Shown: positions 5,380 to 63,381 of the stretch, piece by piece
How the letters are laid out: each line of letters starts with the position of its first letter
Position numbering within the stretch: position 1 is the first letter of the stretch
From: a virus
DNA: 64,000 nucleotides
IMG/VR virus record: IMGVR_UViG_3300044617_002200
Location: 1-64,000 of that record
Reading direction: 5' to 3' (one strand)
Program-made: the position numbers and the translations under genes
Notes under the pieces: generated by a model
The model's database searches: none
Told to the model about the DNA's origin: nothing
Seen by the model: only the letters and a program-made list of their open reading frames with translations

Positions 5380-8300
5380 CTAAAAAAAACCTTGGTTTCC
5401 AATTGAAAAAAAACAGGTGGGTCTAAAAAATTGTATAGAATCATAAGTTTTTCTTGTATAAAAATTGTTTGATAATGGATTGTCATAGTCTGGAGGACGA
5501 GAATCATTAGAATTTTTATTTAGATAATTAAAATTACCAACTAATGCGTATCTATATAAAAGATTGCCGTAAATATTTCCGATTGCTAAAGAATCTAATT
5601 CGGAATTATTTTCTGAATCTATAAAACCTACAGTTACACCTTCTGCATAAATATCTAATTTTGTCCAACCATATCTTTTAATTCTTTTTACAGAACCATC
5701 TAAAGGAGTAGAGAAATTACGCAAGCCGTTGCCTCCTGCCCCATTGACTATATAATATATATTTTTTTTCTTTTCTAATAGTCGTTTTTCAAATCTCTCA
5801 TAATTTTTTGAAAAACCGTTAAAAATAATATCTGCAGAATTTAAATTCCATCCGTTTTCAGAATTTAAATCATAATATCCATAATTATACGATTCAGATG
5901 TAAATGGCGGATGATTAAATAACACAAATTTAAATGGATATTCTGAATTAGAAATTGCGTTATTAAACCACGTTTTTTGTATAGATCGATATGTTTCGTT
6001 ATGTTTACTAGACACTGATTCTCCTTTTCCAGCGCCTTCAGAAATAAGTCCACAACGAGAATTACCTCCTGTTATAGGATCGCTATCAAGTACAAAAAAA
6101 TGACAAGGCCCAATTTTAAGCTCGTAATACTTTCTACTATTAGAAGTATTTTTTATTAAATTATTTAATATTAAATTAAAATAACTTAAATATATATCTC
6201 CGAAACCATCTACTCCATCATAATCTTTTTCACCCAAAACAGGATAAAAATTTGAAACAGAAGTTGGAGAGACATCTTTAAACACAAACCTACAAGAATT
6301 AATACCCGTGGGTAAATAAATTTTTCCCTTTTCAATTATATCTATATCAGAAGATTTACGGTAATATTCTATAAATTCTCTATTTGGCTTTTTAACTTCT
6401 ATGGATAAAAAAGAAGGTTTATAATTTTCTAAAAATTCAATATAATAACCTGTCAAATAATTATTAAAAATATTATTTTTTTCATAACCTAAAAATATAT
6501 CTTCCTCTGCTCCATCTTTAGATAAAACGGCCATGTCGGTTAATTCATTTTTTGTAAAAGCTCTCCAAGCTAAAAAAGGGTTGTAATCTTTACTAAAAAT
6601 TACTTCTCCGTCGTTATTAGAGTAAGAATTTAAATTTGGAATAAAATCATTTACATTAGCAGGTAAGCTTATATCAATACTATCATATAAGTAAAAAGAA
6701 TCTATGTTCAATAAAGGAGCTGATCCAGAAACATAATTCTTATGAGGCCATTTTTTAGATTCATTAATTTCATACTGCAAATATTTAAATGGTTTGGGGT
6801 CATTAATTCTAAAATACTTCTTCGAAGAAGAATACCAATTATTATTCAATTCAGAATCTGAGTAAATCCTACTATCTAAAGTAACCCAGGTAGTTAAATT
6901 TTGAGAACCTTTTAAAGAAGTTGATAAAGGATAAAAAGAAGAATTATAATCAAGTCCTATTTCGTAATATTTCGCAACAGGAGAAACATTTAATTCATCT
7001 TTAAATTCAATTCTGATATATCCTGTCTGATTTTCAGAAGTCGTCCATGATTGAGAATCAGATATGTTTCTTAAATCTTTTTCTATAAATAAATTCTGAA
7101 CTAAATTAGTGTTTTCAGACGCAGTAATAGTTATATTAGAACCAGTTAAAGATTGCGGTATTACATGCCTTAGAAGCGTTCCTGTTGAACTTTCAGAAAA
7201 TATTAATTTATTTTTTAGATCTGCAACTCCAGATTCTCCAGAGTAAATAAAACCGCTTATATATTTATTTTCTACCAACACATATTTATCATATTCCTGA
7301 ATATTAGGAATATTAGGCACTCCCGAGGAAGGCGGACTCCAAAATCTTTCATCAAGATTAAAGCAATAAAAACCAGTATAAAAAATATTTTTATTAAAAA
7401 AACCGGTACCAATTCCGGTATTTACGACATCATTGTAAATACCACTCAAAGCAGTTACAGAAGAAAAATCAATGTTTCTACTTTTGAATATAAATTCTGA
7501 AGAACTAACTTCTTCTTCTTCTAAAGAAACTGCATTTATTTTTGTTCCGCTAGAAGGGAATCCCACTGCAAATCCCCCATAAAACGGCAAATCATATTCG
7601 TAATTTATATTACCGGTAGCATAAAAAAGTCTATTTTGAATTATATTATCAAAACTTCCTGTAGCAGGAACGCCATAGAAGTTTGAATTAGAACTTTTAC
7701 CATCGCCCTTTAAATTACCTGATAAATAATCAAAACCATAAACAAAACCACTAAAAGAACCGCTAGCGAAGCCGGTCGCTTCATAATAATCTAAAATTAC
7801 TTCTCCAGTATTACCATAAATAGGATAGACAGAAAAACTAACTGTCTCAGGTTTAGGTATTATAGATCTTAATTCGTAATTATAAAAGTAACCAGAAGTA
7901 TTATTATTATCTATAAAAGTTAATCCAGTGAAACCAGCTAAAAATTCCAAATAATAAATTGGATCTTTAGTAAATTGCATCTCAAAATCTTGAGAAATAT
8001 TGCCGAAATTAGTTCTTAAAAATAATCTTGGTCTAACAACTGTTCCAGCCAAGCCAGCCAATCTCCCTGTTCCAAAAATAAAATCTAAAATTATATTACC
8101 GCTAGATAAACCATTCACTAATTCTGGATATATTTCATTTTTAATTCCAAAAATACCACCAGCATTGAATAAATCTCCGGAAAAAATCTTAAAAGTTTTA
8201 TTTGATTCCTCTGATAGGTTTGAGATATAACCGGTAACATCTTGCCCTACAGGAATTTTATACGGAAAATTTATAGAATAAGAAGGTTTCAATCCTTGAA

Positions 8301-8661
8301 TAGTTAAATCGAAGTCAATTGGAGTTCTATCTGTTTCAATTAAAAAATTATTGTAATAATCACCTCGGAAAGGCGTATATAAACAAACTGGAGTACCCTG
8401 AATAAAATAATTTAAGAAATCATTTCCTAAATTTCCTGAAATAGAAATAATTTCATTAGGATTATAAGACCAAACATGGTTCTGGTCATAATCAAAAATT
8501 TTTCCACTCTCGAATTTAAATATAATAGTTTCTAATTCCGAATTTTTAGAAAAACCAATATTACTAATCCCGGTGACATTGCCAAATGAAGCTTCAAAAA
8601 GAAAAGTAAGCTCGTTACTTCCCGGTATGCTTCTATATAATACACCAGAATCTATTTGCAT
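5380..8661 (-). CDS. Tail-associated protein with discoidin/F5-8-like segments and a C-terminal degenerate metallophosphoesterase
   Basis: LKGSQNLTTWVTLD and AWRAF are discoidin-like; C-terminal GPCHFFVLDS, NHPPF, YIVNGAGG; lies in the tail-tip module. Confidence 0.65.
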   Translation of the reverse strand: MQIDSGVLYRSIPGSNELTFLFEASFGNVTGISNIGFSKNSELETIIFKFESGKIFDYDQNHVWSYNPNEIISISGNLGNDFLNYFIQGTPVCLYTPFRGDYYNNFLIETDRTPIDFDLTIQGLKPSYSINFPYKIPVGQDVTGYISNLSEESNKTFKIFSGDLFNAGGIFGIKNEIYPELVNGLSSGNIILDFIFGTGRLAGLAGTVVRPRLFLRTNFGNISQDFEMQFTKDPIYYLEFLAGFTGLTFIDNNNTSGYFYNYELRSIIPKPETVSFSVYPIYGNTGEVILDYYEATGFASGSFSGFVYGFDYLSGNLKGDGKSSNSNFYGVPATGSFDNIIQNRLFYATGNINYEYDLPFYGGFAVGFPSSGTKINAVSLEEEEVSSSEFIFKSRNIDFSSVTALSGIYNDVVNTGIGTGFFNKNIFYTGFYCFNLDERFWSPPSSGVPNIPNIQEYDKYVLVENKYISGFIYSGESGVADLKNKLIFSESSTGTLLRHVIPQSLTGSNITITASENTNLVQNLFIEKDLRNISDSQSWTTSENQTGYIRIEFKDELNVSPVAKYYEIGLDYNSSFYPLSTSLKGSQNLTTWVTLDSRIYSDSELNNNWYSSSKKYFRINDPKPFKYLQYEINESKKWPHKNYVSGSAPLLNIDSFYLYDSIDISLPANVNDFIPNLNSYSNNDGEVIFSKDYNPFLAWRAFTKNELTDMAVLSKDGAEEDIFLGYEKNNIFNNYLTGYYIEFLENYKPSFLSIEVKKPNREFIEYYRKSSDIDIIEKGKIYLPTGINSCRFVFKDVSPTSVSNFYPVLGEKDYDGVDGFGDIYLSYFNLILNNLIKNTSNSRKYYELKIGPCHFFVLDSDPITGGNSRCGLISEGAGKGESVSSKHNETYRSIQKTWFNNAISNSEYPFKFVLFNHPPFTSESYNYGYYDLNSENGWNLNSADIIFNGFSKNYERFEKRLLEKKKNIYYIVNGAGGNGLRNFSTPLDGSVKRIKRYGWTKLDIYAEGVTVGFIDSENNSELDSLAIGNIYGNLLYRYALVGNFNYLNKNSNDSRPPDYDNPLSNNFYTRKTYDSIQFFRPTCFFSIGNQGFF

Positions 8662-8663
8662 TT

Positions 8664-11072
8664 TTAATAACCCACTCTTTTTATATCAGAAGAAACTTTC
8701 CTCAAAATGACTTCTGGGTTTGGCGGCTTTGGAGGCTTAGAGGCGAATTCGACACTAGTTTTAAAACCATCTTCTCCTAAAGAAATTTCCATTGAAGAAA
8801 GACCGCTAGAGGGAGATAAATCTAATCCATCTGGTTCTCCAGCAAAAATAAAAGAAGACCTCTCCATCGGAGAGGTAACAGAAGAAGCAACTGCAGTGGG
8901 TAAATCAGAGCGTTTCGCCCCCCAAGAATCAAATTCCGCATCAGTCATATTATCTATAGAAACATTTATTCTAGCAACGTCTTTTGCATTACCAACTGAT
9001 CCTGTAGAGTTAAGTATTTCTTTATTACTATCATCATTCAATAATTTTTGTATAGAACTAGTGAATCTTGTCACAAATTGATACTGACTTTTACTAGGGG
9101 CTAAAAATCTTATATTTGATTTCGCATCTTTTAAAGATATACTGATACCTTCTGCCATTTTTTGAACAAGCCCAGAAATAGGTTCTTTTGGGTCTTCGTT
9201 CTTTTCCGGTTGAAGCTTATCCATCAAATATTTTCTAGCCTCGTCTTCCGCAGATAAGCATGGTTTATTTTTAGAGTCTTCTATTGCGTCGCATTGTTTA
9301 GGGGCGTTTTGATTATATTCAGAAACATCGTCGATAGTGGATTCTAAATCATTTTGACCGCTAATGTATGTTACTTTTAAACCAAGATTTTTTTTGACAA
9401 AATCAGAATTCGGGTAAATAACTAAAGTGTTTACTTTTTTAGAAAGTTCTTTTGTTAAAAGCTCTGCTTCAATTAAATACCCTATTAAACCAGACTCGAC
9501 TAACTCAATGTGAATAGGACTACAAGCTCTTAACTCTCGAGTTAATTCAGATAAACCCAATTCTTCTAAAATAGAACTTGGATCATGAGAGAAAGTTCCA
9601 TTTCTTTCCAACAAATTGGATGCTGAAAATTCATCAGTTTGATCTTCTAAATAAGAGCCTTGAGGTTCTACGCTAACTTCAGATTGTACTAAAACATCGC
9701 TGTTACAAAAATAATAAGATCTATTCGTACCTGGGACTTTATAATGGCGACCGAAATTCGACATATTAGTTTTTTCAAGATCTCTCCATGTAGCTAAAAT
9801 TCCTTCGTCATGACTTACATATGCAGCAGTAAAACTAGGCAAACCCTCTTCATCTAGATCTTGCAAGGCTTGAATAGCTTCTTCATAACCGCCAGTTTTT
9901 ATTAAAAAATTTATAATTTTTTTAATATCTACGGTTTCGCCTTTATCAGTTATTTTGTAACCCATAATTCTCCACCATTTCTTTTCAAAAGCATAAATAT
10001 CTCTTAAAGAATCACTAATCAAACCTAACATCCCGCAAATTACAAACTCGCTTCGACTTCTTCCGTCTCCAAAAGTACCGCCCTCCGCGTCTAGTGATTT
10101 TCTTGTACCATTCTTATTTAAATAATAATTTAATGGATATGGATTAACAGAAGAAGTTACTATTTCTGAATACTCTCCATCTACAGCAGTAGGAGCTTCT
10201 TTTGGTTTTGCGCTATAAGAAATAGCAAATTGTCTATAAGTACCTTCCATAGAAGCACCTTCCGAAACAGAAATTAAATTAGAAGCATTAGACGATGGAA
10301 CGCTTGATATACCGGCAGAAGCTTCAAAAAATTTTAGACCGTTATTCCCTCCCGACGAATAATCCCAATAAAAATCATAACCAAAATCTGCGCACCAATT
10401 TTGTAAAACTTCTCTCAGCGTACCGGAATGAGTGGTTCTATATTTAGAATTTTTATCCGGCATATTTAAACTTATAGGACAAGCTTGTTTTAATTCTGAA
10501 AAATTATAATCAGTGGTCGGGATTTCACATTCTGAGTCTCTAAATTGTTCTGTACCTACCAATATAGCGCCTCCTTTAACGGCAGAGCCTTTTTTACATT
10601 TTCTTGTTATAGAGTGAGATCCTAAAGATCGCTCCATCCAATCTAAATAATACCCCCAAGAACCATTACTCTTCAAAATAGGAAGAATAGTTTTTTCTTT
10701 AGAAAAATCGAATTTTTTTGTTTTAGATATTTCAGATCCATTTACGCCCAATAAACCTCTTTTCCATAAAACAACATAATGTCTATCAAGTATAATACTA
10801 TTATCTATTATTTCAACTTCTAACAAAGATTGTTCTGCTGTTTTTGTAATATTATAAGACCAGACAATTCCATTAAAAGTAAAAGAACCCATTCTAACTG
10901 ATACGGCCTTATTTAGAGAACCAGAGCTTATATTATATGATCCAGAAGAACTAACTATGTTTAATGTTAAAACGCTAGGCTCAGCGGAATAGTTTGTTTT
11001 TAATGATAATCCATAAATCACTCCACCATAAGATGGACCACTAATATTTGGAATTTTTTGAAATGAAGACAT
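8664..11072 (-). CDS. Tail tip/baseplate hub-like protein
   Basis: Position downstream of the tape measure; GTLREVLQNWCADFGYDFYWD resembles hub/Tal N-terminal domains. Confidence 0.55.
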   Translation of the reverse strand: MSSFQKIPNISGPSYGGVIYGLSLKTNYSAEPSVLTLNIVSSSGSYNISSGSLNKAVSVRMGSFTFNGIVWSYNITKTAEQSLLEVEIIDNSIILDRHYVVLWKRGLLGVNGSEISKTKKFDFSKEKTILPILKSNGSWGYYLDWMERSLGSHSITRKCKKGSAVKGGAILVGTEQFRDSECEIPTTDYNFSELKQACPISLNMPDKNSKYRTTHSGTLREVLQNWCADFGYDFYWDYSSGGNNGLKFFEASAGISSVPSSNASNLISVSEGASMEGTYRQFAISYSAKPKEAPTAVDGEYSEIVTSSVNPYPLNYYLNKNGTRKSLDAEGGTFGDGRSRSEFVICGMLGLISDSLRDIYAFEKKWWRIMGYKITDKGETVDIKKIINFLIKTGGYEEAIQALQDLDEEGLPSFTAAYVSHDEGILATWRDLEKTNMSNFGRHYKVPGTNRSYYFCNSDVLVQSEVSVEPQGSYLEDQTDEFSASNLLERNGTFSHDPSSILEELGLSELTRELRACSPIHIELVESGLIGYLIEAELLTKELSKKVNTLVIYPNSDFVKKNLGLKVTYISGQNDLESTIDDVSEYNQNAPKQCDAIEDSKNKPCLSAEDEARKYLMDKLQPEKNEDPKEPISGLVQKMAEGISISLKDAKSNIRFLAPSKSQYQFVTRFTSSIQKLLNDDSNKEILNSTGSVGNAKDVARINVSIDNMTDAEFDSWGAKRSDLPTAVASSVTSPMERSSFIFAGEPDGLDLSPSSGLSSMEISLGEDGFKTSVEFASKPPKPPNPEVILRKVSSDIKRVGY

Positions 11073-11090
11073 ACCTTTTACCGAATTATT

Positions 11091-11096
11091 TTACAC
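11091..11096 (-). promoter_or_regulatory. GTGTAA putative late promoter
   Basis: 18 nt upstream of ATG 11072. Confidence 0.65.
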
Positions 11097-11119
11097 TAAA
11101 CTAGTATATAAAAAACAAT

Positions 11120-13033
11120 TTATCTATATACAAAGAAAAAATCGTCCGTATTGTCATAGATCAAATCTAAATTTTTACCGAAGCTGAACGATCCTGAAAT
11201 TCTATCAAATTTAGAATTTTCTATATAATCTTTATCGATAGTTTGTTTGATACCATTTAAATAAACATGGGTACAATAGTTGTTAAAATTAGAATCTAAT
11301 TCTACTGTAGAACGAGAATCAAAGGTATAAGAAAAGTCTGAATTTAAATTTTTTACATAAAGTAAATTTAGTCTAGAAGAAATTAAGTCAAAATTTAAAA
11401 AATTAGGCAATTCATAATCTTTTCCACTAATTAATTTTTGTCCGTTTAAAAAAACAAAGCTATTGTCAAAACTCGCATCTGAAATAGACATACCGCTGAA
11501 AATACTACCAATTAAATATATACTGTAATTCCCAGTTATATTATCTACTGTCAAAACATCATTCTCTGTAAAAAATTTTTCCGTCTCTATATTCCGCCCA
11601 GTTAAATAATAATCAAAAAGAGGGCCTATTAATTCTTCATAGCCAATTTTTTTTCCAGAATAACCCCCATCAATTAGCAATTGACCATTTGCAAACAGTA
11701 AAATATCGCTATTTTTATAATTCCTATTTAAAAAATGTTTTCCTCGAACAGAATCATACAAAGCAGGAATGTTAAAATATTTACGATTAGCCTTGTAATT
11801 TTCTTTATAGATTTCTATTAAATTCTCGCTTGTTTCTTCTGTATTAAAATATAAAGACACCTCAGAAAATGAAAGAGACTTTAAATAATCTGTGTCAATT
11901 GAATAATTTAAATCACCAGTAACGACAGTAAATGAATCGCAAACGTCTTCAGTTATAAAAATTTTTTCGGAACCCGTTATTGTGCCCGTAATTTCTATAT
12001 TCTCATATTCAAATCTTGGCACAAGCCCAGTTAAAGCGATCTCAGTAGTAAATCTAACCTCTCTAAAACCAGATAAATAAACTGTTTCATAAATGGGTCT
12101 TTCGATATTGCAACTATCTAAAAAATAACCTACTAAATCTTCTCTTTTACCTGTTCTTGTGTAATATAAAATTCCTGTTTCTATCGAGGTAACCCCAGTA
12201 ATTTGATTTTCATATATAACATTTTCAATTAGCTGGTAACCCGTAATTCCCGTATAAGAAAAGCCTGAATCTATAAAATACCCAGTAGTATAACAAATTT
12301 CTCTAGAAAAACCTTGAACTTCTCTTGGAGAAGAATATAATCCTAAGGCAAGATCATTTGCATAAATTGACGGTATATCTTCAAAATAATAAAAACGATC
12401 AATCAAACCATATAAATTATCCACATCATTTTGAATAAAATTCCTAACAGGAGATCCGCCTATAAATAATTTGTTAGCATTAATTATTGAATTATTGAAT
12501 ATTTCAAAATCCCTCGTTTCAAAATTAAAAGTATTATTATCAAACCTCCCAATAGAAATATTGGACCCATCCTTACCAACCATGATTAAATTTTTATCAG
12601 ACAAAATTTCATCAAAAGTAAAAGTGAAAACCCCTTCAACTCCATTATTATATTTATAATAAAGCTTATTAGCAGAATTAACACCAACAAAAAAACCTCT
12701 AGCTTCATCGTTAACTTCATCCACGCTTGAAAATAAGATACTATCTTTTGAATCAAATTTTTCATAAGATATTAAAAATAGATAATTATCTTTTTGATAA
12801 TCAATATTAGAATTAAAATAAATATAATTATTTTTATCAAAAAAACCAGGCTTGTTATTAACAAAAACTGATTCATTAAAAACCAATCCCGTTAATGCGA
12901 AATTCGACGAAAAGTCGGGGTAAAGCAAACCCCCGTTAAAGCTGCCGCTCGAAAAATCAAAACCAACAATATTTTTCTGGATAGGTTCTCCTAGAAGATT
13001 TAAATAAAATTTAATACCAGTATAATTAATCAT
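11120..13033 (-). CDS. Tail-associated protein (LamG-like N-terminus, [S/T]G-rich middle, NGQ repeats)
   Basis: LFIGG...GLIDRF LamG-like end; repeated FANGQ/FLNGQ/YLNGI; overlaps the neighbouring stop codon. Confidence 0.55.
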   Translation of the reverse strand: MINYTGIKFYLNLLGEPIQKNIVGFDFSSGSFNGGLLYPDFSSNFALTGLVFNESVFVNNKPGFFDKNNYIYFNSNIDYQKDNYLFLISYEKFDSKDSILFSSVDEVNDEARGFFVGVNSANKLYYKYNNGVEGVFTFTFDEILSDKNLIMVGKDGSNISIGRFDNNTFNFETRDFEIFNNSIINANKLFIGGSPVRNFIQNDVDNLYGLIDRFYYFEDIPSIYANDLALGLYSSPREVQGFSREICYTTGYFIDSGFSYTGITGYQLIENVIYENQITGVTSIETGILYYTRTGKREDLVGYFLDSCNIERPIYETVYLSGFREVRFTTEIALTGLVPRFEYENIEITGTITGSEKIFITEDVCDSFTVVTGDLNYSIDTDYLKSLSFSEVSLYFNTEETSENLIEIYKENYKANRKYFNIPALYDSVRGKHFLNRNYKNSDILLFANGQLLIDGGYSGKKIGYEELIGPLFDYYLTGRNIETEKFFTENDVLTVDNITGNYSIYLIGSIFSGMSISDASFDNSFVFLNGQKLISGKDYELPNFLNFDLISSRLNLLYVKNLNSDFSYTFDSRSTVELDSNFNNYCTHVYLNGIKQTIDKDYIENSKFDRISGSFSFGKNLDLIYDNTDDFFFVYR

Positions 13034-14622
13034 GATGATATAGGACCTTCAAATAACCAGCTTTCTTTTAAATTTACACTTTTTAAATCAGGATTAATTG
13101 TTTCGTTATTATTTTCAAGAACGCCTCTACCTACTCCATAATTACTTTTTATACGTCCTAATTCACTTTGAGCCGCCGATAAAGCTTCTTGCATACTAGA
13201 ATTTGGTTTAGCTATTGCAGTAACATCAAAATCAGCTCTAGCTCTTCTCGCAGTGCCAAGATCTTGAACATTATGATCTCCAGGTGTAACCGCCGAAGCA
13301 TTAGGTACATATATTTTAACTGATGGTTTTAAATTAACAGTAGACTGCAAGCTCAAGATTTTATCCGAAAAATGCTGATATTTGTCATCCCAAGTTGCAC
13401 TAAAATTAATTCTAGCATTAAATTCATCAAAAGTCGCAGATTCGTTTAATTTTTTATTATATAAAACTCTATTAGAAATTTCTTTTCTATATTCTGCATT
13501 AGCTAAAGAAAAAGGATCAAAAGAATTTTTGTAAAAATTTTTTACTTTTTCCCATTTAGTTTTTGTGTCGCCATATTTTGCAAATATTTCAGTATTTAAT
13601 GTTACTGTGGTAATATTTTTAATATTATCACTAGAAATATCTACCGAATAGTTGTTAACTACATCCGAAGAATAATCATTATTAAAAGTATAGTTAAATG
13701 AAATTTTATTTTCATACTCGAATTCTGTAACCGAATTCTCTATTGGTTTTGAATTTAAAATTACTCCTACCGAAGAAACAGTATTAGAATTAGCAATATT
13801 ATAAAAATTTATCTTATCTAATTCCTCTCTTAAGACAGGAAGAGTATTCTTTGTTAGAGAACCTTCTATATTAGTGACTACGTAACCATCATTAACTCCA
13901 GAGGAAATATCTATAGAATAATTTAAAAAACAATTTTTAGGGCTTTCAATTGATCTCGTTTTTTGATAAACGCCCTCCCAAGAATAAAATCCCTCTATCC
14001 GATTGATTTCTTCTTTAACAGAATCAAGTAAATAATCAGAACCGTTCGGGTCAATTAAAATCGGATTAATTTTATTAAAATTGTCTTTTCGAGAAACAAC
14101 CCACTCTTTCGCATTTTCTAATGGAGACTTATTATTTATTTTTAAGCCTTTTGCTGATAAAGAATGGGTTACAGAAGCTATTCCAAAGTCTTCTTCTTTA
14201 AATTCTAAATTTTCTTGTGGTTCTATTATTCCATAATAATTATTAAATAAACTTGGCTCATATACTGTAAAATTTATCTCGAATGGTATTACTCCGTACC
14301 ATTTATCCTCCGGAATACTTAACGAATCAAATATAGCTCTTTCAGCTTTAAATAAAATATCATTATCTTGTTTTATCTCTAATTCTTTAAAATTAGAAGA
14401 AAGCCTTTCTTTTAATATATTGAGAGATCTATTTAATTCAAAAAAAGAAGTTTCTCCCAAATATCTTCCAGTTATCTGTCCTTGCATTTTTAGATTAGTA
14501 ACTTGGTTCCAAGTATTTTTATAATCGATAAAATTTTGTTCTGAAGAAATAAATGGGATTGGTGCAATATCTTTAAACAAATCTTGATTATTATATAATA
14601 TTTTAATATTAGACTCGCTCAT
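13030..14622 (-). CDS. Distal tail/tail-tip protein, paralog of 14625..16292
   Basis: Beta-rich; position after the tape measure; DSLSIPEDKW aligns with KSLSFDEGNW. Confidence 0.5.
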   Translation of the reverse strand: MSESNIKILYNNQDLFKDIAPIPFISSEQNFIDYKNTWNQVTNLKMQGQITGRYLGETSFFELNRSLNILKERLSSNFKELEIKQDNDILFKAERAIFDSLSIPEDKWYGVIPFEINFTVYEPSLFNNYYGIIEPQENLEFKEEDFGIASVTHSLSAKGLKINNKSPLENAKEWVVSRKDNFNKINPILIDPNGSDYLLDSVKEEINRIEGFYSWEGVYQKTRSIESPKNCFLNYSIDISSGVNDGYVVTNIEGSLTKNTLPVLREELDKINFYNIANSNTVSSVGVILNSKPIENSVTEFEYENKISFNYTFNNDYSSDVVNNYSVDISSDNIKNITTVTLNTEIFAKYGDTKTKWEKVKNFYKNSFDPFSLANAEYRKEISNRVLYNKKLNESATFDEFNARINFSATWDDKYQHFSDKILSLQSTVNLKPSVKIYVPNASAVTPGDHNVQDLGTARRARADFDVTAIAKPNSSMQEALSAAQSELGRIKSNYGVGRGVLENNNETINPDLKSVNLKESWLFEGPISS

Positions 14623-14624
14623 AA

Positions 14625-16292: not shown

Positions 16293-16293
16293 C

Positions 16294-48418: not shown

Positions 48419-48458
48419 AAAAAACGCGCTTATCCTTAATAGAGGTAAGCGCGTTTTT
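48419..48458. terminator. Bidirectional terminator between convergent hsp20 and phoD
   Basis: AAAACGCGCTTA...TAAGCGCGTTTT inverted repeat with A- and T-runs on both sides. Confidence 0.85.
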
Positions 48459-49887: not shown

Positions 49888-49892
49888 AAGAT

Positions 49893-51467: not shown

Positions 51468-51478
51468 TTTTCATGTAT

Positions 51479-51484
51479 TTACAC
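51479..51484 (-). promoter_or_regulatory. GTGTAA putative late promoter
   Basis: 11 nt upstream of ATG 51467. Confidence 0.65.
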
Positions 51485-51553
51485 TTTTTTTGGCTAGTTT
51501 AAAGTTATTTTATTTTTTTATAAAAAAACTGCATTCATACTATAATATAGTAA

Positions 51554-52600: not shown

Positions 52601-53388
52601 AAAAATATTGTTATTGGTCAATAGCTTGGGGAGATTATAGCTATATGCTACAATCTTTAGTTAATTCAGCCAGAAGCGTAGGAGTAGAAGAAGATTTTAT
52701 AACTTTCAGTGATATACCAATATCTAATTCTATAAATTACGAACTAGATAAAAATATTGAACTAGATCAACTTCAGTTTTTTAAATTTGAATATTTAGTA
52801 AAAAAAATGAAAGAAATGGACTATGAATATTTTATATTTATAGATGCAGATCATTTCTTTTTAAGAAAACCCGAAATGGATTTAAATGAAATAATGCGCA
52901 ATTCTCCATGGCATTCTTTTCTAGAAAGTCCTATTAATGGCATTAAAACGCAAAGAAAAGATTGGTGGAGCGTACAGAATAAAATAATGGTTCAGTACAT
53001 GAAATTAATGGGAGTACAATGCGAAGAAATGCGGAATACAAACGGCGGTTTTTGGATTTGTCATAAAAATTTTTGCCAGCAAGCGCATACTCTTGCTTAC
53101 GAATTTCATAATAAATTAAAAAACATGGGGCTTATTGTTCCAGAAGAAGTTTCGATTGGTTATCTTTCTCATTTAATGAGTCCCAATGTATCAGATCGTT
53201 TCGCAGAACGGTTTACAAAATACTGGGCAAGCGATTGGACTGGGATTTTTCAAGATAAACTTCCTGAAGATATAGAGTGGGAAAGCACTTCTTATATGAC
53301 TTTTGAAAAAATACCGGTTCAACCAGCAATCATTCATGCGATGAGAAGTAAAAAAGCTTTAATAGATAAAAGTAAAATTACTCAATAA
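52597..53388 (+). CDS. Glycosyltransferase, GT-A fold
   Basis: FIFIDAD DxD motif, NGGF, EE, IIH. Confidence 0.7.
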   Translation: MKKYCYWSIAWGDYSYMLQSLVNSARSVGVEEDFITFSDIPISNSINYELDKNIELDQLQFFKFEYLVKKMKEMDYEYFIFIDADHFFLRKPEMDLNEIMRNSPWHSFLESPINGIKTQRKDWWSVQNKIMVQYMKLMGVQCEEMRNTNGGFWICHKNFCQQAHTLAYEFHNKLKNMGLIVPEEVSIGYLSHLMSPNVSDRFAERFTKYWASDWTGIFQDKLPEDIEWESTSYMTFEKIPVQPAIIHAMRSKKALIDKSKITQ

Positions 53389-55400: not shown

Positions 55401-55404
55401 ATTA

Positions 55405-58206
55405 TTATAATGCCAACGCCATCGCGGTTGATATATTTGTTATATTGTTTGTTATATATGTTACACTTTCTACATTTTTATTTGTCCATAAATTGTTTTC
55501 AAAAACTAAAATCTGGCCAGATTGAGGATTAACAATTTTTACATCATGAAGTTCATCTATTTCATACCCATTTTGCACTTTAACGTACATAATGCCATTA
55601 TTACCATTACTTGGTCTTTCTACTACACCAAGAAATACAGCATGTTGCGGAGCTTGTGGTTTTGTTTTTGTAAGAGTACCATCTCCAGAACCTAACCAAA
55701 CCATATCGCCAGTATCAAATCCGGTTAATATACTTAAATTTTGCAGTTGTCCGTTAGTAAGAATATATCCATCAGCGCCACTAGCGATAGATTGTGCAGC
55801 CAAACCGAAAGTTCTTGCTGATGTTCCTTCACTGAGATTATTTGCTTTTTTAACTGTTGCTCTATCACCTTGCGCACCAGCAATATAAACAGTTTCTCCT
55901 TTAGTTAAATTTGCTCCGTTGTTTCTTACATAAGCAACCGTAGAAAAACCAAGAGGCACGCGAACATCACTATTCGGTAGTGAACTAGTTAGCACTCCAG
56001 TTATATCTTGGTCTCCTGATTTAGAAAGAGCATTGATATCATTTGGAGTAATATTTATATTAGCTTGTTTTACTAATGAATTAAAAGTATAACCTCCTAA
56101 AACTGAAACCCAGCCAGTAGCTAAATCCGGGGTCGCGACATCGCTAGAGGATCTAAAGAATAGAGTCTGAAAAGAACTGAGGCCTATTTCCCATCTAGAA
56201 GATGTAGAGTTCCACCCAATTTGGGTTGTGTTTGATAATCCATCTTTTGAATATAAAGGTCTTCCATTTCTAGTTCCTATTATTTTATAAATACCAGCAC
56301 CAGAGGACCAACTAATATTTAAAATTAAATTATCAGTATAATAATTCGAACCAATTGAAACAGCGTTAATGTCTTTAGGGTATATTGGATCGTTTCCACC
56401 AACAAAATGAGAATCTGCATGTCTTGTTACGGGTTCAATTAACCATTGATTTTCAAATCTTTCTCCGTAAATAAATCTAGCAGATTGATTAAAATAAAGC
56501 GTAGTAAGCAAACCTTGCTCAACATCGTACGCTGCGAAAGTAGGATATACGCGTAGTTCTCTATACAAATCATTGCTAAAATCAGAAGTCAAAGTGACCT
56601 CTACAAAAGAACCTTTTTCTAAATTTGTTTCTGGTAAAACTAAAAAAGAATGCCCTTCAACATTCATGAAGATATTAGCATAAGTATCTTTATTTTGAAT
56701 TTGAAAGACATCTCCGCTACCGAGGTTCGCTCCAGTATAAACGGGAGATAAAGCCACTCTATTATTACCAACAATTATTCTATTATTAAAAGTTTTTATT
56801 CCATTAATAGTTTGATTTCCAGTTATATAAACTAAATCTTGAGAATTTATTTCTGCAGGATTGATTTGAAAATAACTAGATCCGCCCCATCTATATGTTT
56901 TTGCGTCTCCGGTTGTTACATAAATTTTGCCAGCTTCTCCAGAAACCCCAGTAAGAGTGCTATAGTTTGGATATTCTATAACATCATCTACATAACTAGG
57001 TAATTGGCTAGAAGGAATTTTCCCATTTATTAATGATGCTGCATTAGAATCTCTAACAGGTACCTCTTTCTTCCATCGTAAATCTGATCCATTATATAAT
57101 AATCTATAAACTCTGCTTTCGTATTGATTTGTAAAATCATAATAATCCCAATTGTCTACAGTAGTACTATTATAATTTCTTATGTTAAAAGAAACCATAC
57201 CATTTATTTGAGTTCTTATTTCAATTCTATCTCCAAATCTAGCAGTACCACCTGAAAGTATATCTCTAGGCAATGCAATAACAGCTGATGCAAAGGCAAG
57301 CGATGCTGGACTATGATTAACTTCAACAATAGCATTTCTTCCAATATCTGGGCCATTAAAATTTTGGAGTGTAGATGTCAAGGATACTTCTTCATTAGGA
57401 GAAGTTAAGATAGCTGTTTTGTAATATACAGGTAAAGATTCAGATTCCCCAACAAGAGCTATCCCAGTATTATTAACTGTAGGTCTATTTAAAAAATTCC
57501 AATTATCATATAAGGTATGATTACCACTTTGTCTTAATTCAAAAACCGAGGGTTCACCAGGTGCATTTAAACGCTTTATAGTTAAATTTTGATCATAATT
57601 AGCCGAAGGATCTTGTATAACACCCCATAATCTTTTAAAACCACTAGAATCACCGCTAGCGCCGAAATCGATTCCAATTCTATTATGAGCGCCAGACGGA
57701 GAATAAAGTCTTAATGCTGTATCGTTTTTTATACAATTAATATTTCCATCTTTATCAATATAAAATGGAGTCGTGTCTGGATTATTAGAATCTTCAACCA
57801 GAAATACATGACCATTTCCGGTTGTTCTCTGCGTTAACCTTAATACAGGATCCGCAGACTCATTTTCAAATATAACAGAACCACCAGATACATGAAGCTT
57901 TGCTTTTGGATCTGATGTATTTACGCCAACATTTCCATTATCAGAAACAAAAAACGATATATTGCCCGTACCTATTTGTAAAGGATCTAGAAATGTTTTT
58001 ACCCCGCTAATGTTTTGATTACCCGTAGTATAAACGATTGTATTAGGTAATTGAATACCATTAGTAGAAGAAACCTCCCCGATTAATAAAACTCCAGTGC
58101 CATTTACTCTGGGTCTACTGGCGAAATCTTTAATCCCACTTATATTAGACTGGTCACCAGTTGTCGAAACAACTTGGTCTATATGGGCATGTATTTTTGT
58201 TGGCAT
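55405..58206 (-). CDS. Mosaic tail fibre protein
   Basis: V[YS].TG[ND]Q..I.G.K.F repeats, GNVGVNTSDP..KLHV, GKIPSSQLPSYVDDV, QNGYEIDELHDV. Confidence 0.8.
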   Translation of the reverse strand: MPTKIHAHIDQVVSTTGDQSNISGIKDFASRPRVNGTGVLLIGEVSSTNGIQLPNTIVYTTGNQNISGVKTFLDPLQIGTGNISFFVSDNGNVGVNTSDPKAKLHVSGGSVIFENESADPVLRLTQRTTGNGHVFLVEDSNNPDTTPFYIDKDGNINCIKNDTALRLYSPSGAHNRIGIDFGASGDSSGFKRLWGVIQDPSANYDQNLTIKRLNAPGEPSVFELRQSGNHTLYDNWNFLNRPTVNNTGIALVGESESLPVYYKTAILTSPNEEVSLTSTLQNFNGPDIGRNAIVEVNHSPASLAFASAVIALPRDILSGGTARFGDRIEIRTQINGMVSFNIRNYNSTTVDNWDYYDFTNQYESRVYRLLYNGSDLRWKKEVPVRDSNAASLINGKIPSSQLPSYVDDVIEYPNYSTLTGVSGEAGKIYVTTGDAKTYRWGGSSYFQINPAEINSQDLVYITGNQTINGIKTFNNRIIVGNNRVALSPVYTGANLGSGDVFQIQNKDTYANIFMNVEGHSFLVLPETNLEKGSFVEVTLTSDFSNDLYRELRVYPTFAAYDVEQGLLTTLYFNQSARFIYGERFENQWLIEPVTRHADSHFVGGNDPIYPKDINAVSIGSNYYTDNLILNISWSSGAGIYKIIGTRNGRPLYSKDGLSNTTQIGWNSTSSRWEIGLSSFQTLFFRSSSDVATPDLATGWVSVLGGYTFNSLVKQANINITPNDINALSKSGDQDITGVLTSSLPNSDVRVPLGFSTVAYVRNNGANLTKGETVYIAGAQGDRATVKKANNLSEGTSARTFGLAAQSIASGADGYILTNGQLQNLSILTGFDTGDMVWLGSGDGTLTKTKPQAPQHAVFLGVVERPSNGNNGIMYVKVQNGYEIDELHDVKIVNPQSGQILVFENNLWTNKNVESVTYITNNITNISTAMALAL

Positions 58207-58215
58207 AAAATGATA

Positions 58216-58476: not shown

Positions 58477-58481
58477 AAATT

Positions 58482-61052
58482 TTAAGCTGTTGGATCTGTT
58501 ACTACCAATTGATCAGTTGTGTTAAAGTAACTTAAACGAACCGTGTTATTAGAATTTGAGAAGATTCTAGTATTATAATTGTTATATACGTGAGTTGCTC
58601 CTGTAACATCACCTATACTATTATTATTTTCTATAGTATTTCTTCTAAAATTGTTTCCAACGGCGTTGTTGGTGAAGCTGCTTCCAACGGCGTTGTCGGT
58701 GAAGCTGCTTCCAATGGTGTTGGAGTTGAAGTAGTTTCCAATGGTGTTGTAGCTGAAGTTGTTTTCAACGGTGTTGTAGCTGAAGTTGTTTTCAATGGTG
58801 TTGGTGTAAAAGGACTCGTTTCCAATGGTGTTGGAGTTGAAGTAGTTTCCAATGGTGTTGGAGTAGAATAAGTTTCCAATGGTGTTGGAGTTGAAGTTGT
58901 TTCCAATGGTGTTGTAGTAGAAGCTGCTTCCAATGGTGTTGGATTGGAAGTCGACTCCAATGGTGTTGCGGTTGAAGTTGTTTCCGATGGTGTTGGAGAT
59001 GAAGTTGTTTCCAATGGTGTTATGTAAGAAGTAGTTTCCAACAGCGTTATTGGTGAAGTCTTTTCCAATATTATTATAATTAAAATCACTTCCTATTTTG
59101 TTTTCTAAAAAGAAAATATCTACAGAATTAAATATAAAAGGCCCGCTAGTGGTATTAAAATAAAAATTAGCGACTATATTATTACCGTAAAAACTGTTAC
59201 TGATAATATTAGAATAAAAAGCTTCTCCGATTGTATTGGTGGTAAAACCATTACCGATAACATTAGTATCAAAGCGATTACCAATCGAGTTTACCTGAAA
59301 ACCTTCTCCGATTGTATTGGAGTGAAAACCTTCTCCGATTGTATTGGAATAAAAATTATTACCAATAATAACATTTTGAAAACCGTTTTGTATTTTTATA
59401 TTATTGACGTTTTCGATATTTAATTGACTTTCTTGATCTAAAGATGTTACAAAAGTAGGTTGTTGAATTCTTGTTTGATACAAAGGAGGTAATGAAACTG
59501 ATATATTATTATTTGTTTTAAACGCAAGCTCACCGTCTTCCGTTATGTAAGTTGCAAAATAAGTTTGAGATTCATTAAACGGAGAAACCGGCAACCAGAA
59601 ATTAGTGTTTGTTAAATTATTATTTGTATTTGAATTAACCACAGAATAATAAAGCTTACCACTAACATCTTTTACGACATTATGTAAATTATATGTAGTA
59701 CCAGAATTGTATAAATTAACCGATGACATATCTGGACGGCAGCAGTTATTAGTTATATATCTCCAGTCCCAACCGATATCAATATTTTTCTTTGTATCAT
59801 TTCTTCTATAAATCCAACCCTTAAAATTGGGTATTGGTGTATTGATATTTCTTGTGCCCCAAGTATTTGAACTTGTTGCATCTATATCATAATACACAAT
59901 ATCTTCTGGGTGGAGTGTAGATTTCGCTTCAGTATGAATTCCACTCGCATTAACAGCTGTGACAACCAGTGGTTCTATTGCGCTACCAGTTAAAACAACA
60001 GTATTGTTTACAGATTGGTTCCACCATCTTAATTGGAAGTCATTGATAATGTAATTTTGCCCACTCTTTAATAGACCGCTATTTTTTAAATTTTTTAAAT
60101 CATTATAAGGTAATGAAATTGCAGATTGAATAGAAGAAATATCTACACCAGTTATAAATCCGCTAGGATTTGAAGCTGGGTATGCACCGATTTCTTGAGG
60201 AGTATGGAGGTGATTACCAGAAGCGACCGTGCCTGCAGTATCGCCTTTTCTTATAAATCTATCTTCAATAAAAGCACCCAGTGGAGTGTTTAAAAGAATT
60301 GGTATACCTCCACCAACATTAATAGGGAAAGTATTTAAAATTTCAGGACCTAGAGATTGAAAAAACGCATACCCCTCAAAAAAACCGCCATCCTCATTGT
60401 AAATGTTTGTTTGTATTCGAGGAATATCTTTAATTTTTAAATTATTTAAAGTATTATTATTCCCAGTTATTATTGAATGAGTTCTGATATAATTACTATT
60501 AAAACCAACTTTAGAAGGCGTTGGAGGAGAACCGCTAACAAAAAAACAACTTATATATGTCCCACTAGCAGGAACAATTGGGCTATTTGAAGCTGAAACC
60601 TCAAAATCTAAAGCAAATGTAGATCCTGGTAAAACAACTGCTGAACCGAGAGACTCAAAATTAAGAACATCTCCGGCTTCCCATCCTGTTCTGGGTATTT
60701 TTATTTTTGTGTTTCCGTTAGGAATACTTGACAAAATATACTTAGCGTATCTTTTAGGCTGTATTAAAAATTCATTATTTAAAAAATTGCTAGAATTTAT
60801 CTCGATATATTCATATTCGTGAGAATGTAATTTTTTAGCAGCACCAATATTCTCAGGATTAATTGGGTCTGTTCCACTTAAACTATGGACATAAGCATGA
60901 GAAGGTAAACTCCCAGAAGGTAAAACGCCGCTAATATCATTTAGCTTTAAATCAACATTTCCATTAATAGGTAATTTTCCGTTTACCGATAGTAATGCAG
61001 AATCAGGAACTGATGAATTTTCTATTGTCGAAATACCTATTTGATTAATCAT
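58482..61052 (-). CDS. Fibre/spike (receptor-binding) protein with 9-aa NTIGNxFxx repeats
   Basis: LSVNG, HxH motifs, GAYPASNPSGFITG; long C-terminal repeat array. Confidence 0.8.
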   Translation of the reverse strand: MINQIGISTIENSSVPDSALLSVNGKLPINGNVDLKLNDISGVLPSGSLPSHAYVHSLSGTDPINPENIGAAKKLHSHEYEYIEINSSNFLNNEFLIQPKRYAKYILSSIPNGNTKIKIPRTGWEAGDVLNFESLGSAVVLPGSTFALDFEVSASNSPIVPASGTYISCFFVSGSPPTPSKVGFNSNYIRTHSIITGNNNTLNNLKIKDIPRIQTNIYNEDGGFFEGYAFFQSLGPEILNTFPINVGGGIPILLNTPLGAFIEDRFIRKGDTAGTVASGNHLHTPQEIGAYPASNPSGFITGVDISSIQSAISLPYNDLKNLKNSGLLKSGQNYIINDFQLRWWNQSVNNTVVLTGSAIEPLVVTAVNASGIHTEAKSTLHPEDIVYYDIDATSSNTWGTRNINTPIPNFKGWIYRRNDTKKNIDIGWDWRYITNNCCRPDMSSVNLYNSGTTYNLHNVVKDVSGKLYYSVVNSNTNNNLTNTNFWLPVSPFNESQTYFATYITEDGELAFKTNNNISVSLPPLYQTRIQQPTFVTSLDQESQLNIENVNNIKIQNGFQNVIIGNNFYSNTIGEGFHSNTIGEGFQVNSIGNRFDTNVIGNGFTTNTIGEAFYSNIISNSFYGNNIVANFYFNTTSGPFIFNSVDIFFLENKIGSDFNYNNIGKDFTNNAVGNYFLHNTIGNNFISNTIGNNFNRNTIGVDFQSNTIGSSFYYNTIGNNFNSNTIGNLFYSNTIGNYFNSNTIGNESFYTNTIENNFSYNTVENNFSYNTIGNYFNSNTIGSSFTDNAVGSSFTNNAVGNNFRRNTIENNNSIGDVTGATHVYNNYNTRIFSNSNNTVRLSYFNTTDQLVVTDPTA
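58650..59070 (-). repeat. 27-bp coding tandem repeat, consensus AAC ACC ATT GGA AAC AAC TTC AAC TCC (~15 units)
   Basis: Read directly; C-ending codons unlike the rest of the window. Confidence 0.95.
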
Positions 61053-61058
61053 AACTTT

Positions 61059-61370
61059 TTAATTTTGATATGTTACTGCTGCCCAAAAATTGCCATTACC
61101 ACTTGCGACAGCCCTAATAATACCAAAAGGAGTAGTCATGTATGCTGGAGTCGCATATCCACTGGATAGGTTATTAAATCTATAAAAATCAATGAAATCT
61201 TTTTCAAAAAATGGACTTTGATATTGTAAAGTTATGTTTGCTGGAGAATTTCCGCTATAGAAAACTGAAAAAGCGGCGTCTCTTGCTCTAGAAATATTAA
61301 CATATTCGCCAGTAACAGGTCCGGATTGACCACTCAATAATAGATCCGGTTTAAATAAAAAACTATTCAT
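61059..61370 (-). CDS. Small beta-rich virion-associated protein
   Basis: 103 aa, [S/T]G-rich; preceded by GTGTAT. Confidence 0.65.
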   Translation of the reverse strand: MNSFLFKPDLLLSGQSGPVTGEYVNISRARDAAFSVFYSGNSPANITLQYQSPFFEKDFIDFYRFNNLSSGYATPAYMTTPFGIIRAVASGNGNFWAAVTYQN

Positions 61371-61379
61371 ACTATATTA

Positions 61380-61385
61380 ATACAC
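61380..61385 (-). promoter_or_regulatory. GTGTAT variant late promoter
   Basis: 9 nt upstream of ATG 61370. Confidence 0.55.
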
Positions 61386-61392
61386 TATAATT

Positions 61393-62280
61393 TTAATATT
61401 TAATATTATATTTTTGTATGTAAGTATTAATAGTAGACATAAATTTATACTTGTCACACACAAGGTGGCACATACCTGTACCAGTTATCGTATAGGGCAT
61501 TGTATAATGATTAATATTTTTTTCATTTTCATCTACTAGACTGTCCTCTGAATTAAAAGACGGAAGTAAAACAATTTTTTCTCCAATTTTTAAAGGTCTT
61601 TCGCACATTAATCTATAACATACCTGCTCTAAGCTAACTGGAAAATACGCAGTAAATGTTTTGTGGGAATCGACTATTCTCTGAAATTTATTACTTTCAA
61701 AAAAGAATTTATTTTGTTTTACATAATTCAAGATTATATTTGCATTATTTTTTAATACATTTAAATATTCTGGACAACTAGTTCCGAATACTCCGAAATT
61801 TCTCGATATAAAAATATCTTTTTCCATATTCATATTCGGTAAAAATCCTGTATTTTCGAACATATCTTGAACGAAATTTTTCATCACCTTATGTTTTACC
61901 CAAGGCTCATCGTTCAAAGTAAAAAATTTAGAATTTTCTACTTTTTTAAAGATTTCTTTGTGAAATAAAAAAAAGTCAAAATCTACATGAACAAAGGGTC
62001 TTTCATGGTTTTTTATAGCAATAAATTTTCCGCCACTCCAAAATGGGATAGGAATTAAAGATAAATCTGATAATGACATTATGCGGACTTCATCATAAGG
62101 AATATTTTTAAAAATATGAGAACTTAATTCATCCACATACAAAATAGTTTTATACCCCTGTCTTCTCATTAAAAAGTTACTAAACGCGGCTAATTTTTTT
62201 TGTGTTTCTAATTCTTCTTGTTGATTAAAATCCCACCTATCTTTTCTATCTACTGTCCACCAGCTATAAATTGCGTCCAT
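61393..62280 (-). CDS. GT-A-like nucleotide-sugar transferase (DUF6734-like)
   Basis: FW..GK......PFVHVDFDFFL, NFGVFG, LEQ. Confidence 0.6.
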   Translation of the reverse strand: MDAIYSWWTVDRKDRWDFNQQEELETQKKLAAFSNFLMRRQGYKTILYVDELSSHIFKNIPYDEVRIMSLSDLSLIPIPFWSGGKFIAIKNHERPFVHVDFDFFLFHKEIFKKVENSKFFTLNDEPWVKHKVMKNFVQDMFENTGFLPNMNMEKDIFISRNFGVFGTSCPEYLNVLKNNANIILNYVKQNKFFFESNKFQRIVDSHKTFTAYFPVSLEQVCYRLMCERPLKIGEKIVLLPSFNSEDSLVDENEKNINHYTMPYTITGTGMCHLVCDKYKFMSTINTYIQKYNIKY

Positions 62281-62283
62281 ATA

Positions 62284-63381
62284 TTATATTACAAATTCAA
62301 AAGTTAAAGATTTATGTAAAATTTCTCCATAATTAACGAATTCTTTTTTACAAAAATCTAATTTTTCGGGCCACTTTGGTTTTGGGCTGTCAATAACCCT
62401 GCCATCTGGATGCACATAGTATATATGCAATTTATATTTATTTTTATTTTTTAAAATTAATTTTAAGTCTTTAAAGGTGACTGTTACCGCCGTTGGTATT
62501 TTTGGACAGTCTTCAAAATTCAATTTAATATGGTTGTCTATAGGTATTATATTTTTTTCAGAATCTTCTATTAAGAATTTAAAAACGCGATATTTATCTA
62601 CATCTAAAATCATGTTGGGATGAATTTGGATTTCTATTTTGGAAAAATCGCATAAATACTTGATTAATTCATGATCAACTATATTAAATAAATAAGAAAT
62701 ATTTGGCGCGTTTATATATTTTCGCAACGATACGGGTTTGTCACCGCTTGCTTTTAATTCCGGATTTAAAAGATAACTATTTAGACTTGGATTAAAGCCA
62801 CCAATAGTATTATTGTCTATAGTATCTTTTAACGGTAAAAGAGTATTTATTATATGATCTATTTTTCGCCCATTAACAAAATATGTATACGTTCCCCAAG
62901 CATCGCCCTTTTGAAGAGTGTCTTTTGTTATTTTTTTTAAATTCGGCTGAACTTCTTCGTCCAAAAATTCGTAACACTTTTTACACCAAGTAAACATATG
63001 TAAAAAATCATAATCGGGAGGAAAAGATGGTATTAAATTTAAAAAGTTAGGGTGCAAGATACAATCATCCTCTATGACTAAGACATCTTCTTGTAAGTTA
63101 AGTCTTTTAATTTCATGTAATATTTTTAAATGACTCAACGCACATCCAAGAGTCCCCTTTAATTGTATCAATCCGTTGTCAAACCATTTTGGTCCTAGCC
63201 ATTTATTATAATCCATAGTAAAGTCTTCGCCATGAATCCCTAATATATGTAAATTTTCAACCTTATCAACTAAATTGGCTCGCTTTATTTCTTTGAATAA
63301 ATCCTTTAAACGTTTTTTGTAAGAATTTTTCCAAAAGACATTGACAGTACTAAAATATGGAGATACTATAAATATATGCAC
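62284..63381 (-). CDS. Glycosyltransferase family 25-like
   Basis: GTLGCALSHLKIL, VLVIEDD, WGTYTY. Confidence 0.8.
   Translation of the reverse strand: MHIFIVSPYFSTVNVFWKNSYKKRLKDLFKEIKRANLVDKVENLHILGIHGEDFTMDYNKWLGPKWFDNGLIQLKGTLGCALSHLKILHEIKRLNLQEDVLVIEDDCILHPNFLNLIPSFPPDYDFLHMFTWCKKCYEFLDEEVQPNLKKITKDTLQKGDAWGTYTYFVNGRKIDHIINTLLPLKDTIDNNTIGGFNPSLNSYLLNPELKASGDKPVSLRKYINAPNISYLFNIVDHELIKYLCDFSKIEIQIHPNMILDVDKYRVFKFLIEDSEKNIIPIDNHIKLNFEDCPKIPTAVTVTFKDLKLILKNKNKYKLHIYYVHPDGRVIDSPKPKWPEKLDFCKKEFVNYGEILHKSLTFEFVI

Follow-up and report, generated by a model that had tools for sequence, protein, structure and literature searches.

Genes of the Window and a Dipeptide Excess in Its Tail Proteins

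The DNA stretch analysed here, referred to as the window, comprises positions 1 to 64,000 of IMG/VR virus record IMGVR_UViG_3300044617_002200, i.e., the initial 64 kb of a viral contig that is 83.4 kb long and has a GC content of 0.335. We examined an unusual feature of some of its predicted tail proteins, in which glycine is preceded by serine or threonine ([S/T]G) far more often than expected from composition, and its relation to the glycosyltransferase (GT) genes found on the same DNA. A long block of structural genes on the minus strand includes the large terminase (41468-43369), the tape measure protein (16294-24681, 2795 amino acids (aa)), the tail-tip genes downstream of the tape measure and two fibre genes with a BppL_N motif. 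Ten related contigs (G001-G010, two of them complete), found with the terminase as query, served as the comparison set. Since the relatives bounded by terminal repeats, whose terminases are 84-85% identical to that of the window, measure 166-178 kb, about half of the genome is missing from the record. The left end of the contig falls within a perfect tandem repeat (window 1-127, seven copies of an 18-nt unit) encoding SSSTSG units, and as the contig starts inside this repeat, the assembly probably broke there.

For each of 45 open reading frames (ORFs) of the window the number of [S/T]G dipeptides was compared with 5000 composition-preserving shuffles of the same protein and expressed as a z-score. 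The count lay above every shuffle in five ORFs only (z 4.2-6.9), all on the minus strand: the tail-tip proteins 11120-13033 (637 aa, 21 of 49 glycines after S/T, z 5.8) and 5380-8661 (1093 aa, 33 of 91, z 5.6), the two fibre proteins with a BppL_N motif (PF18338) at 36652-39504 (950 aa, 34.6 bits, 28 of 60, z 6.9) and 55405-58206 (933 aa, 43.3 bits, 29 of 86, z 4.2), and a protein of 103 aa encoded within the fibre operon (61059-61370, 6 of 8, z 4.7). In the pooled sequences of these five, S/T precedes glycine in 117 of 294 cases, and TG (observed/expected ratio, O/E, 3.24) and SG (2.04) rank first and second in over-representation among the 400 dipeptides, with no enrichment of the reversed dipeptides GS (0.99) and GT (0.79). 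Within a protein the sites can be strongly clustered, as in the CYTTG..VVTGD stretch of 11120-13033, where 12 of 13 glycines follow S/T, or in 5380-8661, where residues 1-560 account for the excess (29 of 55 glycines, against 4 of 36 further on). The hand counts of the initial annotation for 11120-13033, its central stretch, 61059-61370 and the terminase (2 of 33) proved exact, and its estimate of about 30 sites in 5380-8661 was close to the recount; shuffling places the excess beyond chance.

The remaining ORFs of the structural block do not share this property. The tape measure protein, which can be regarded as an internal control, has a z of 0.9, and the putative major capsid protein on the same strand (31277-32377, 366 aa, 83-84% identical in relatives) has a z of -1.4 with a single one of its 30 glycines after S/T. 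Even the tail-tip neighbours 8664-11072, 13030-14622 and 14625-16292 are unenriched (z 0.0, -0.8, and -1.8). The initial annotation had reported many more sites in the fibres, the tube and the terminator; this holds for the two fibres, but not for tube and terminator, as no ORF of the putative tube region, which separates the tape measure from the capsid module, exceeds a z of 2.05. A glycan coat covering the whole virion, as was proposed there, is thus not what the distribution indicates, with putative capsid, tube-region and tape measure proteins all unenriched and a capsid C-terminus that is not S/T-rich (2 S/T in the last 40 residues).

Conservation Across an Uncultured Phage Lineage

In the distal tail adhesins and fibres of this uncultured phage lineage, the [S/T]G excess constitutes a genuine and ancient signature at the protein level. 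All ten relatives carry proteins with z ≥ 5, including G009, whose terminase is 54% identical to that of the window, and the strongest excess was found in a protein of the complete, terminal repeat-bounded genome G004 (128074-131796, S/T before 82 of 133 glycines, z 15.4). Orthologues of the enriched proteins of the window reach z 6.8-9.2, and those of the tape measure, the putative capsid protein, the terminase and others are not enriched. In total, 44 of 514 ORFs of the lineage have z ≥ 5. Pooling 54 enriched lineage proteins gives an O/E of 2.73 with 48.4% of glycines after S/T, compared to 1.11 (15.2%) for 728 other lineage proteins and 1.16 (15.8%) for 461 control ORFs. A single shared domain was rejected as the source, since the enriched proteins are mostly not related to one another by BLAST.

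As controls we used 237 ORFs of at least 250 aa from nine unrelated phages, including ones of low GC content: lambda (part), T4 (70-169 kb), T5 (70-120 kb), Che8 (1-40 kb), PAU of Sphingomonas (20-160 kb), Cellulophaga phi38:1, Microcystis MaeS, and Bacillus Slash and PBC4. Not one of the 237 reached z ≥ 5 and one reached z ≥ 4 (maximum 4.12), which rejects the possibility of a generic property of phage fibres; T4 gp37 and lambda J, for instance, have z-scores of 0.65 and -0.5.

Conservation was followed column by column in two protein families that are unrelated to each other. Of the 21 sites in the window protein 11120-13033, 17 are [S/T]G in at least 79% of the members of its family (39 sequences, 23-72% identical), and in the family of 5380-8661 (12 sequences, 17-70% identical) 20 of 33 are kept in at least 75%. 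Conserved glycine columns are preceded by S/T in 28 of 39 and 28 of 41 cases, respectively, i.e., in about 70% in both families, and by N/D in 4 of 39 and 1 of 41. The S/T columns of the first family contain 914 S/T vs. 15 N/D, and 268 of the 300 residues at S/T-preceded columns of the second are S/T. Serine and threonine interchange freely at the sites, and the N/D-G columns form a separate class. Ten non-enriched families from the same genomes have S/T before 30 of 214 conserved glycine columns (14%) and N/D before 28 of 214. In the short protein 61059-61370, five relatives keep three of the six sites as [S/T]G. The sites draw on the full set of codons, ten for S/T and four for glycine, indicating selection at the protein level and leading us to reject a DNA motif or codon artefact.

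A profile of the 11120-13033 family matched 598 representatives at 50% clustering (E ≤ 0.001). From the 150 of these that were listed, 140 had new identifiers and 137 (<50% mutual identity) were kept after three shorter than 250 aa had been dropped; among these listed matches, 132 of 137 score z ≥ 4, the median share of glycines after S/T is 55%, and no decay of the excess over distance is seen. A simple sequence statistic can thus pick out a single class of tail proteins in a large uncultured lineage, one family of which alone comprises at least 598 protein clusters at 50% identity. No cultured relative of 11120-13033 was found among 50,697 phage records, and the sole match of the fibre 36652-39504 to cultured phages was a partial one of 13% to phage PAU.

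Structural Context of the Sites

The sites share a context of the type hydrophobic-hydrophobic-[S/T]-G-hydrophobic, with aspartate depleted sevenfold (to 0.14) directly before S/T, and proline and glycine depleted after the glycine. Their spacing has no strong period, and a periodic repeat was rejected as their source. In an AlphaFold2 model of 11120-13033 (pLDDT 76.4), two LamG/ConA-like jelly rolls flank a central beta region (residues 234-379) that is dense in [S/T]G. This region is modelled, at low confidence, as four very long strands; in the confidently modelled C-terminal domain five of six sites map to short loops joining strands, or right next to them. In relatives, some of the sites fall within canonical repeats, such as leucine-rich repeats (LRR, NQLtGxIPsLsGL), Asp-boxes (SxNtGxTW) and RCC1 repeats (tgWGDN). 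Besides RCC1, the tail clusters of relatives hold BNR/sortilin, FG-GAP and fn3 modules.

We favour, at a probability of roughly 45%, the interpretation that [S/T]G represents a structural turn motif of beta-rich adhesin modules. The serine or threonine hydroxyl would cap or hydrogen-bond the turn, and the glycine would adopt the backbone angles required by the turn or bulge, so that a site would mark the end of a beta strand at a tight loop, as seen in the confident part of that one model. Beta-rich adhesin modules might use this device pervasively, in the way plant-type LRRs use L[S/T]GxIP. Such an interpretation fits the fixed positions of the sites, their hydrophobic flanks, the cases within canonical repeats, the specificity for certain domains and the independence from the GT repertoire (see below). 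The plant-specific type of LRR, with its consensus L[S/T]GxIP, offers a close parallel: it too has [S/T]G at a fixed position with hydrophobic flanks in a beta-rich repeat, and one protein of G004 (10386-11489, 23 of 38 glycines after S/T) is such an LRR protein. However, the parallel covers one protein of one relative, and most enriched proteins are not LRRs. The LRR protein itself (locus L093), a phage protein built of plant-type repeats, is encoded near the terminase.

Several observations weigh against a purely structural explanation. A physical preference of turns should also be seen in the fibres of other phages and in the remaining beta-rich virion proteins of the lineage, yet none of the control ORFs reached z ≥ 5. 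The three tail-tip neighbours of the same genomes, with similar divergence, have S/T before 5 of 63 conserved glycine columns. The excess spans different folds and proteins without detectable homology, and this occurrence across unrelated folds suggests a cause acting in trans. Finally, residues capping turns usually swap among S, T, N and D, and the S/T columns described above nearly exclude N and D. Confinement to one protein class of one lineage, the diversity of folds and the exclusion of N/D all favour something that reads the hydroxyl group in trans.

Sugar-Related Genes and the Possibility of Glycosylation

The initial annotation had listed four GTs in the window and considered them as the enzymes that would modify [S/T]G. 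Two of them passed the respective Pfam cut-offs: a GT4-type (GT-B) glycosyltransferase on the plus strand (51554-52600, PF00534, 41.8 bits, cut-off 26.4), divergent from the gene of a poly-serine protein, and a GT25-like glycosyltransferase on the minus strand (62284-63381, PF01755, 38 bits, cut-off 24), in the same orientation as the fibre genes and with a homologue in just one of the ten related contigs. A third, 52597-53388 on the plus strand (263 aa, with a FIDADH motif), has no match in Pfam or NCBIfam and is a probable GT-A-fold transferase by its resemblance to GT6/GT8-type GT-A models of the ESM Atlas (TM 0.65-0.70). The fourth, a DUF6734 protein (61393-62280, minus strand), could not be supported as a GT: Pfam assigned all nine family members examined to DUF6734 only, hhalign gave a probability of 0.6% for a relationship to a GT-A family and a profile search of the PDB yielded no hits. 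Only the invariant residues H98, D100, and D102 (HxDxD, a DxD-like motif) and the gene neighbourhood point to such a function. The GT25 and DUF6734 genes lie inside the fibre operon with gaps of 3-53 nt, and the GT4, GT-A and DUF6734 genes are joined as a cassette of three in G002, G006, and G010 and are found close together in G005. Homologues of all four genes are absent from G004, however, and this genome encodes the protein with the strongest excess of all. These four are therefore not the general cause of [S/T]G, and the expected correlation of the excess with GT content does not hold for the GT repertoire of the window. No relative without any GT was found, since G004 has other GT and sugar-related genes (137 ORFs of at least 110 aa scanned, with eight that cross piece boundaries omitted).

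A better enzyme candidate than the GTs of the window, if an enzyme exists, is a sugar module that belongs to the core of the lineage, as judged from sequence comparison. Seven relatives (G001-G006, G008) have kept genes for a GDP-mannose 4,6-dehydratase (72-80% identical), a GT4-like protein of 639 aa (72-86%), a heptosyltransferase-like protein of 401 aa (39-70%) and a protein of 250 aa (77-89%), the last three being contiguous and adjoining the [S/T]G-rich fibre cluster (for example L099:2605-6522, corresponding to G004 122605-126522, with counterparts in G001-G006 and G008). At its C-terminal end, the 639-aa ORF has about 100 residues resembling the N-terminal part of lipopolysaccharide (LPS) heptosyltransferases; the C-lobe of these enzymes is matched by the next ORF, of 401 aa. 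The two ORFs may encode a GT-B enzyme split over two genes. The module is not found on the contig of the window, where by synteny it would be located just beyond the left end.

We consider it possible, if on the unlikely side, that [S/T]G is an acceptor code for O-glycosylation, or for another modification of the hydroxyl group, on the tail adhesins, with the lineage-core module as its reader. The 639-aa GT4-like and the 401-aa heptosyltransferase-like proteins would then act as a cytoplasmic enzyme pair, the sugar would come from the GDP-mannose 4,6-dehydratase, and elaboration or diversification of the glycan might fall to variable GTs like those in the window. The glycine would give the enzyme access to the hydroxyl at a tight turn, akin to the hyper-glycosylation of bacterial adhesins. 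Conservation of the hydroxyl only, with free exchange of S and T, the targeting of a single protein class across unrelated folds and the restriction of the trait to one lineage all agree with this proposal, as does the predicted position of the sites at tight strand-loop-strand junctions in the confident part of the model. An ORF with z ≥ 4 lies within 10 kb at 12 of 13 module loci (the 13th locus ends early), although all of these loci come from a single lineage in which gene order is conserved, and their adjacency to fibre genes therefore does not count as independent evidence. Similarly, a match to Pfam GT9 (33 bits, cut-off 22) and one to the C-lobe of LPS heptosyltransferases (E 4.5e-9) were obtained for the 401-aa ORF, but its score for the NCBIfam heptosyltransferase model is 35.8 bits against a cut-off of 170. 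The location of the GT25 and DUF6734 genes within the fibre operon also speaks for a link between sugars and fibres. On the other side, the presence of the module in this particular genome rests on synteny, the sites have hydrophobic flanks and in part lie inside structural repeats, and proteins that would not be targets show no avoidance of [S/T]G (O/E 1.11 vs. 1.16 in controls). Moreover, the GT4, GT9 and dehydratase genes would fit a modification of host LPS or capsule equally well.

In mycobacteriophages, virion O-glycosylation (Freeman et al. 2023, as cited in PMC12619734) places the glycans at the C-termini of capsid and tail-tube subunits. As in that system, phage-encoded GT genes (two above Pfam cut-offs, and one lead from a GT-A-like fold) are found here beside structural genes, and a modification of virion proteins has been proposed; unlike there, the signal is missing from the putative capsid and tube proteins and consists instead of an internal dipeptide at turns of distal tail proteins. 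The structural ORFs tested of the mycobacteriophage Che8 have z ≤ 2.3.

The autotransporter O-heptosyltransferases Aah and TibC, acting on AIDA-I, TibA and Ag43, are described (PMC4358343, PMC3835316) as WaaC-type cytoplasmic GT-B enzymes that are encoded beside their beta-rich adhesin substrates and modify many serines and threonines, in the case of Aah with no sequence consensus. The gene arrangement in the relatives may be comparable, with a heptosyltransferase-like ORF adjoining beta-rich adhesin or fibre genes, but the phage ORFs are weak matches to LPS heptosyltransferases, are apparently split over two genes and are found in relatives and not in the window. The passenger domain of Ag43 has 20 [S/T]G sites vs. 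20.4 expected (z -0.1), and as Ag43 is a substrate without excess, [S/T]G would not be a signature of the Aah/TibC family. In eukaryotes, Ser-Gly xylosylation and the (T/S)-G sites of EOGT likewise involve an acceptor hydroxyl residue followed by glycine. These require acidic or EGF-cysteine contexts, in contrast to the hydrophobic flanks and the depletion of aspartate seen here, and no related enzyme family was found. Full-text literature searches turned up no report of glycosylated phage tail fibres or of an [S/T]G motif, which is not proof of absence.

Taken to its full extent, the glycosylation hypothesis would imply that the distal tail adhesins of a phage lineage widespread in fresh water carry a dense, conserved O-glycosylation code of [S/T]G at tight beta turns (20-80 sites per protein, half of the glycines), read by a lineage-core split GT-B pair encoded by the fibre genes, with a glycan diversified by swappable GT cassettes. 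In this complete form we regard it as rather doubtful; if true, phages would thereby gain their first example of a sequon-like code for protein glycosylation, and the fibres would be sugar-coated adhesins. The host range of phages is decided by their receptor-binding proteins, and to our knowledge post-translational modification of phage proteins is little known outside mycobacteriophages. If the sites are glycosylated, they would represent a new, predictable modification code for phage adhesins that can be read from metagenomes. If they are structural, as we favour, they would constitute an unrecognised turn motif that could aid the modelling and engineering of beta-rich fibres.

Poly-Serine Tracts as a Possible Alternative Substrate

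The GT genes of the window may serve purposes other than [S/T]G, such as glycosylating poly-serine tracts of virion-associated proteins or modifying the host envelope or the phage DNA, a reading that we rate as unlikely. Three proteins of the window, all encoded on the minus strand, contain poly-serine runs (28 residues at most), and the underlying DNA consists of 9-21-nt tandem repeats with mixed serine codons. The most extreme is a protein of 524 aa (49893-51467) consisting of 38% serine (199 residues), with the longest runs and short tandem repeats; the neighbouring PhoD-like phosphoesterase (48457-49887) has a C-terminal run of 17 serines, and a truncated ORF (3-1970) that runs off the contig end encodes an N-terminal trypsin-like protease domain followed by serine-rich tracts and the SSSTSG repeats (18-nt unit). 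The GT4 gene adjoins the gene of the 38%-serine protein in divergent orientation and lies near that of the PhoD-like protein. In relatives the runs are up to 111 residues long and occur in tail-cluster proteins (e.g., G002 81616-84912).

In the set G000-G006, made up of the genome of the window and those with a completeness of 71% or more, poly-serine runs and the GT4/GT-A pair are concordant in all seven cases, both being present in G000-G003, G005, and G006 and both absent from the complete G004. This co-occurrence, in a small and related sample, makes the poly-serine tracts a more natural acceptor candidate than [S/T]G for the GT4, GT-A and DUF6734 proteins of the window, as does the cassette that these three form in several relatives. 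The seven genomes are, however, not independent samples, and the fragments G008 and G009 have poly-serine runs but no GT4/GT-A genes on the pieces examined. Being tandem DNA repeats, the tracts may also be plain flexible linkers.

Serine-rich-repeat adhesins are glycosylated by GT4-type enzymes (GtfA/GtfB), and the arrangement seen here resembles such a system in that a GT4-type gene lies beside that of a protein made largely of serine runs, with both co-occurring across relatives; it differs in concerning poly-serine tracts and not [S/T]G. No typical partner of such systems, i.e., a GtfB-like protein or accessory secretion genes, turned up in Pfam and PHROG scans of the 45 ORFs of the window, in which no search was aimed at them.

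An artefactual origin of the excess, whether in composition, repeats of low complexity, motifs in the DNA or the calling of ORFs, is, like chance, excluded, for even though part of the count in 3-1970 stems from the SSSTSG repeat and some sites in the two fibres from a repeated BppL_N-type motif (YTTGNQxIxGxKTF), the shuffles preserve composition, a variety of codons is used at the sites, divergent homologues keep the sites in the same alignment columns, no strong period is seen in their spacing, and nearly all of the distant representatives keep the excess.

Further Features of the Window and Its Relatives

The length of the tape measure protein implies a very long non-contractile tail. In relatives this protein ranges from 1960 to 3367 aa, and it has an internal peptidase- or endolysin-like domain at residues ~2065-2225. 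The end of the tail cluster is occupied by two large proteins (3-1970 and 2242-5355) that both begin with a serine protease domain of the trypsin type (phrog_20754, GDSG motif); Gly/Pro-rich stretches and many cysteines are additional features of the second (1037 aa).

The C-terminal half of 5380-8661 has a weak metallophosphatase-like match (21.3 bits). Together with the PhoD-like protein 48457-49887, its sequence suggests the presence of virion-associated phosphodiesterases, possible targets of which are phosphodiester-linked surface polymers.

A relative of the putative capsid protein (86% identical) was found on a contig of 3.9 kb (CAZUSF010000265.1, locus L153) in the bin of an uncultured Thiobacillus metagenome-assembled genome. 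This is probably a binning accident and uninformative with respect to the host. G004 also encodes proteins with SET and HTTM domains. Within the fibre operon of the window, the ORF 58482-61052 (856 aa) contains a tandem repeat of a 27-nt unit (58651-59068, about 15 copies, 79% match), which translates into a protein repeat of nine residues.

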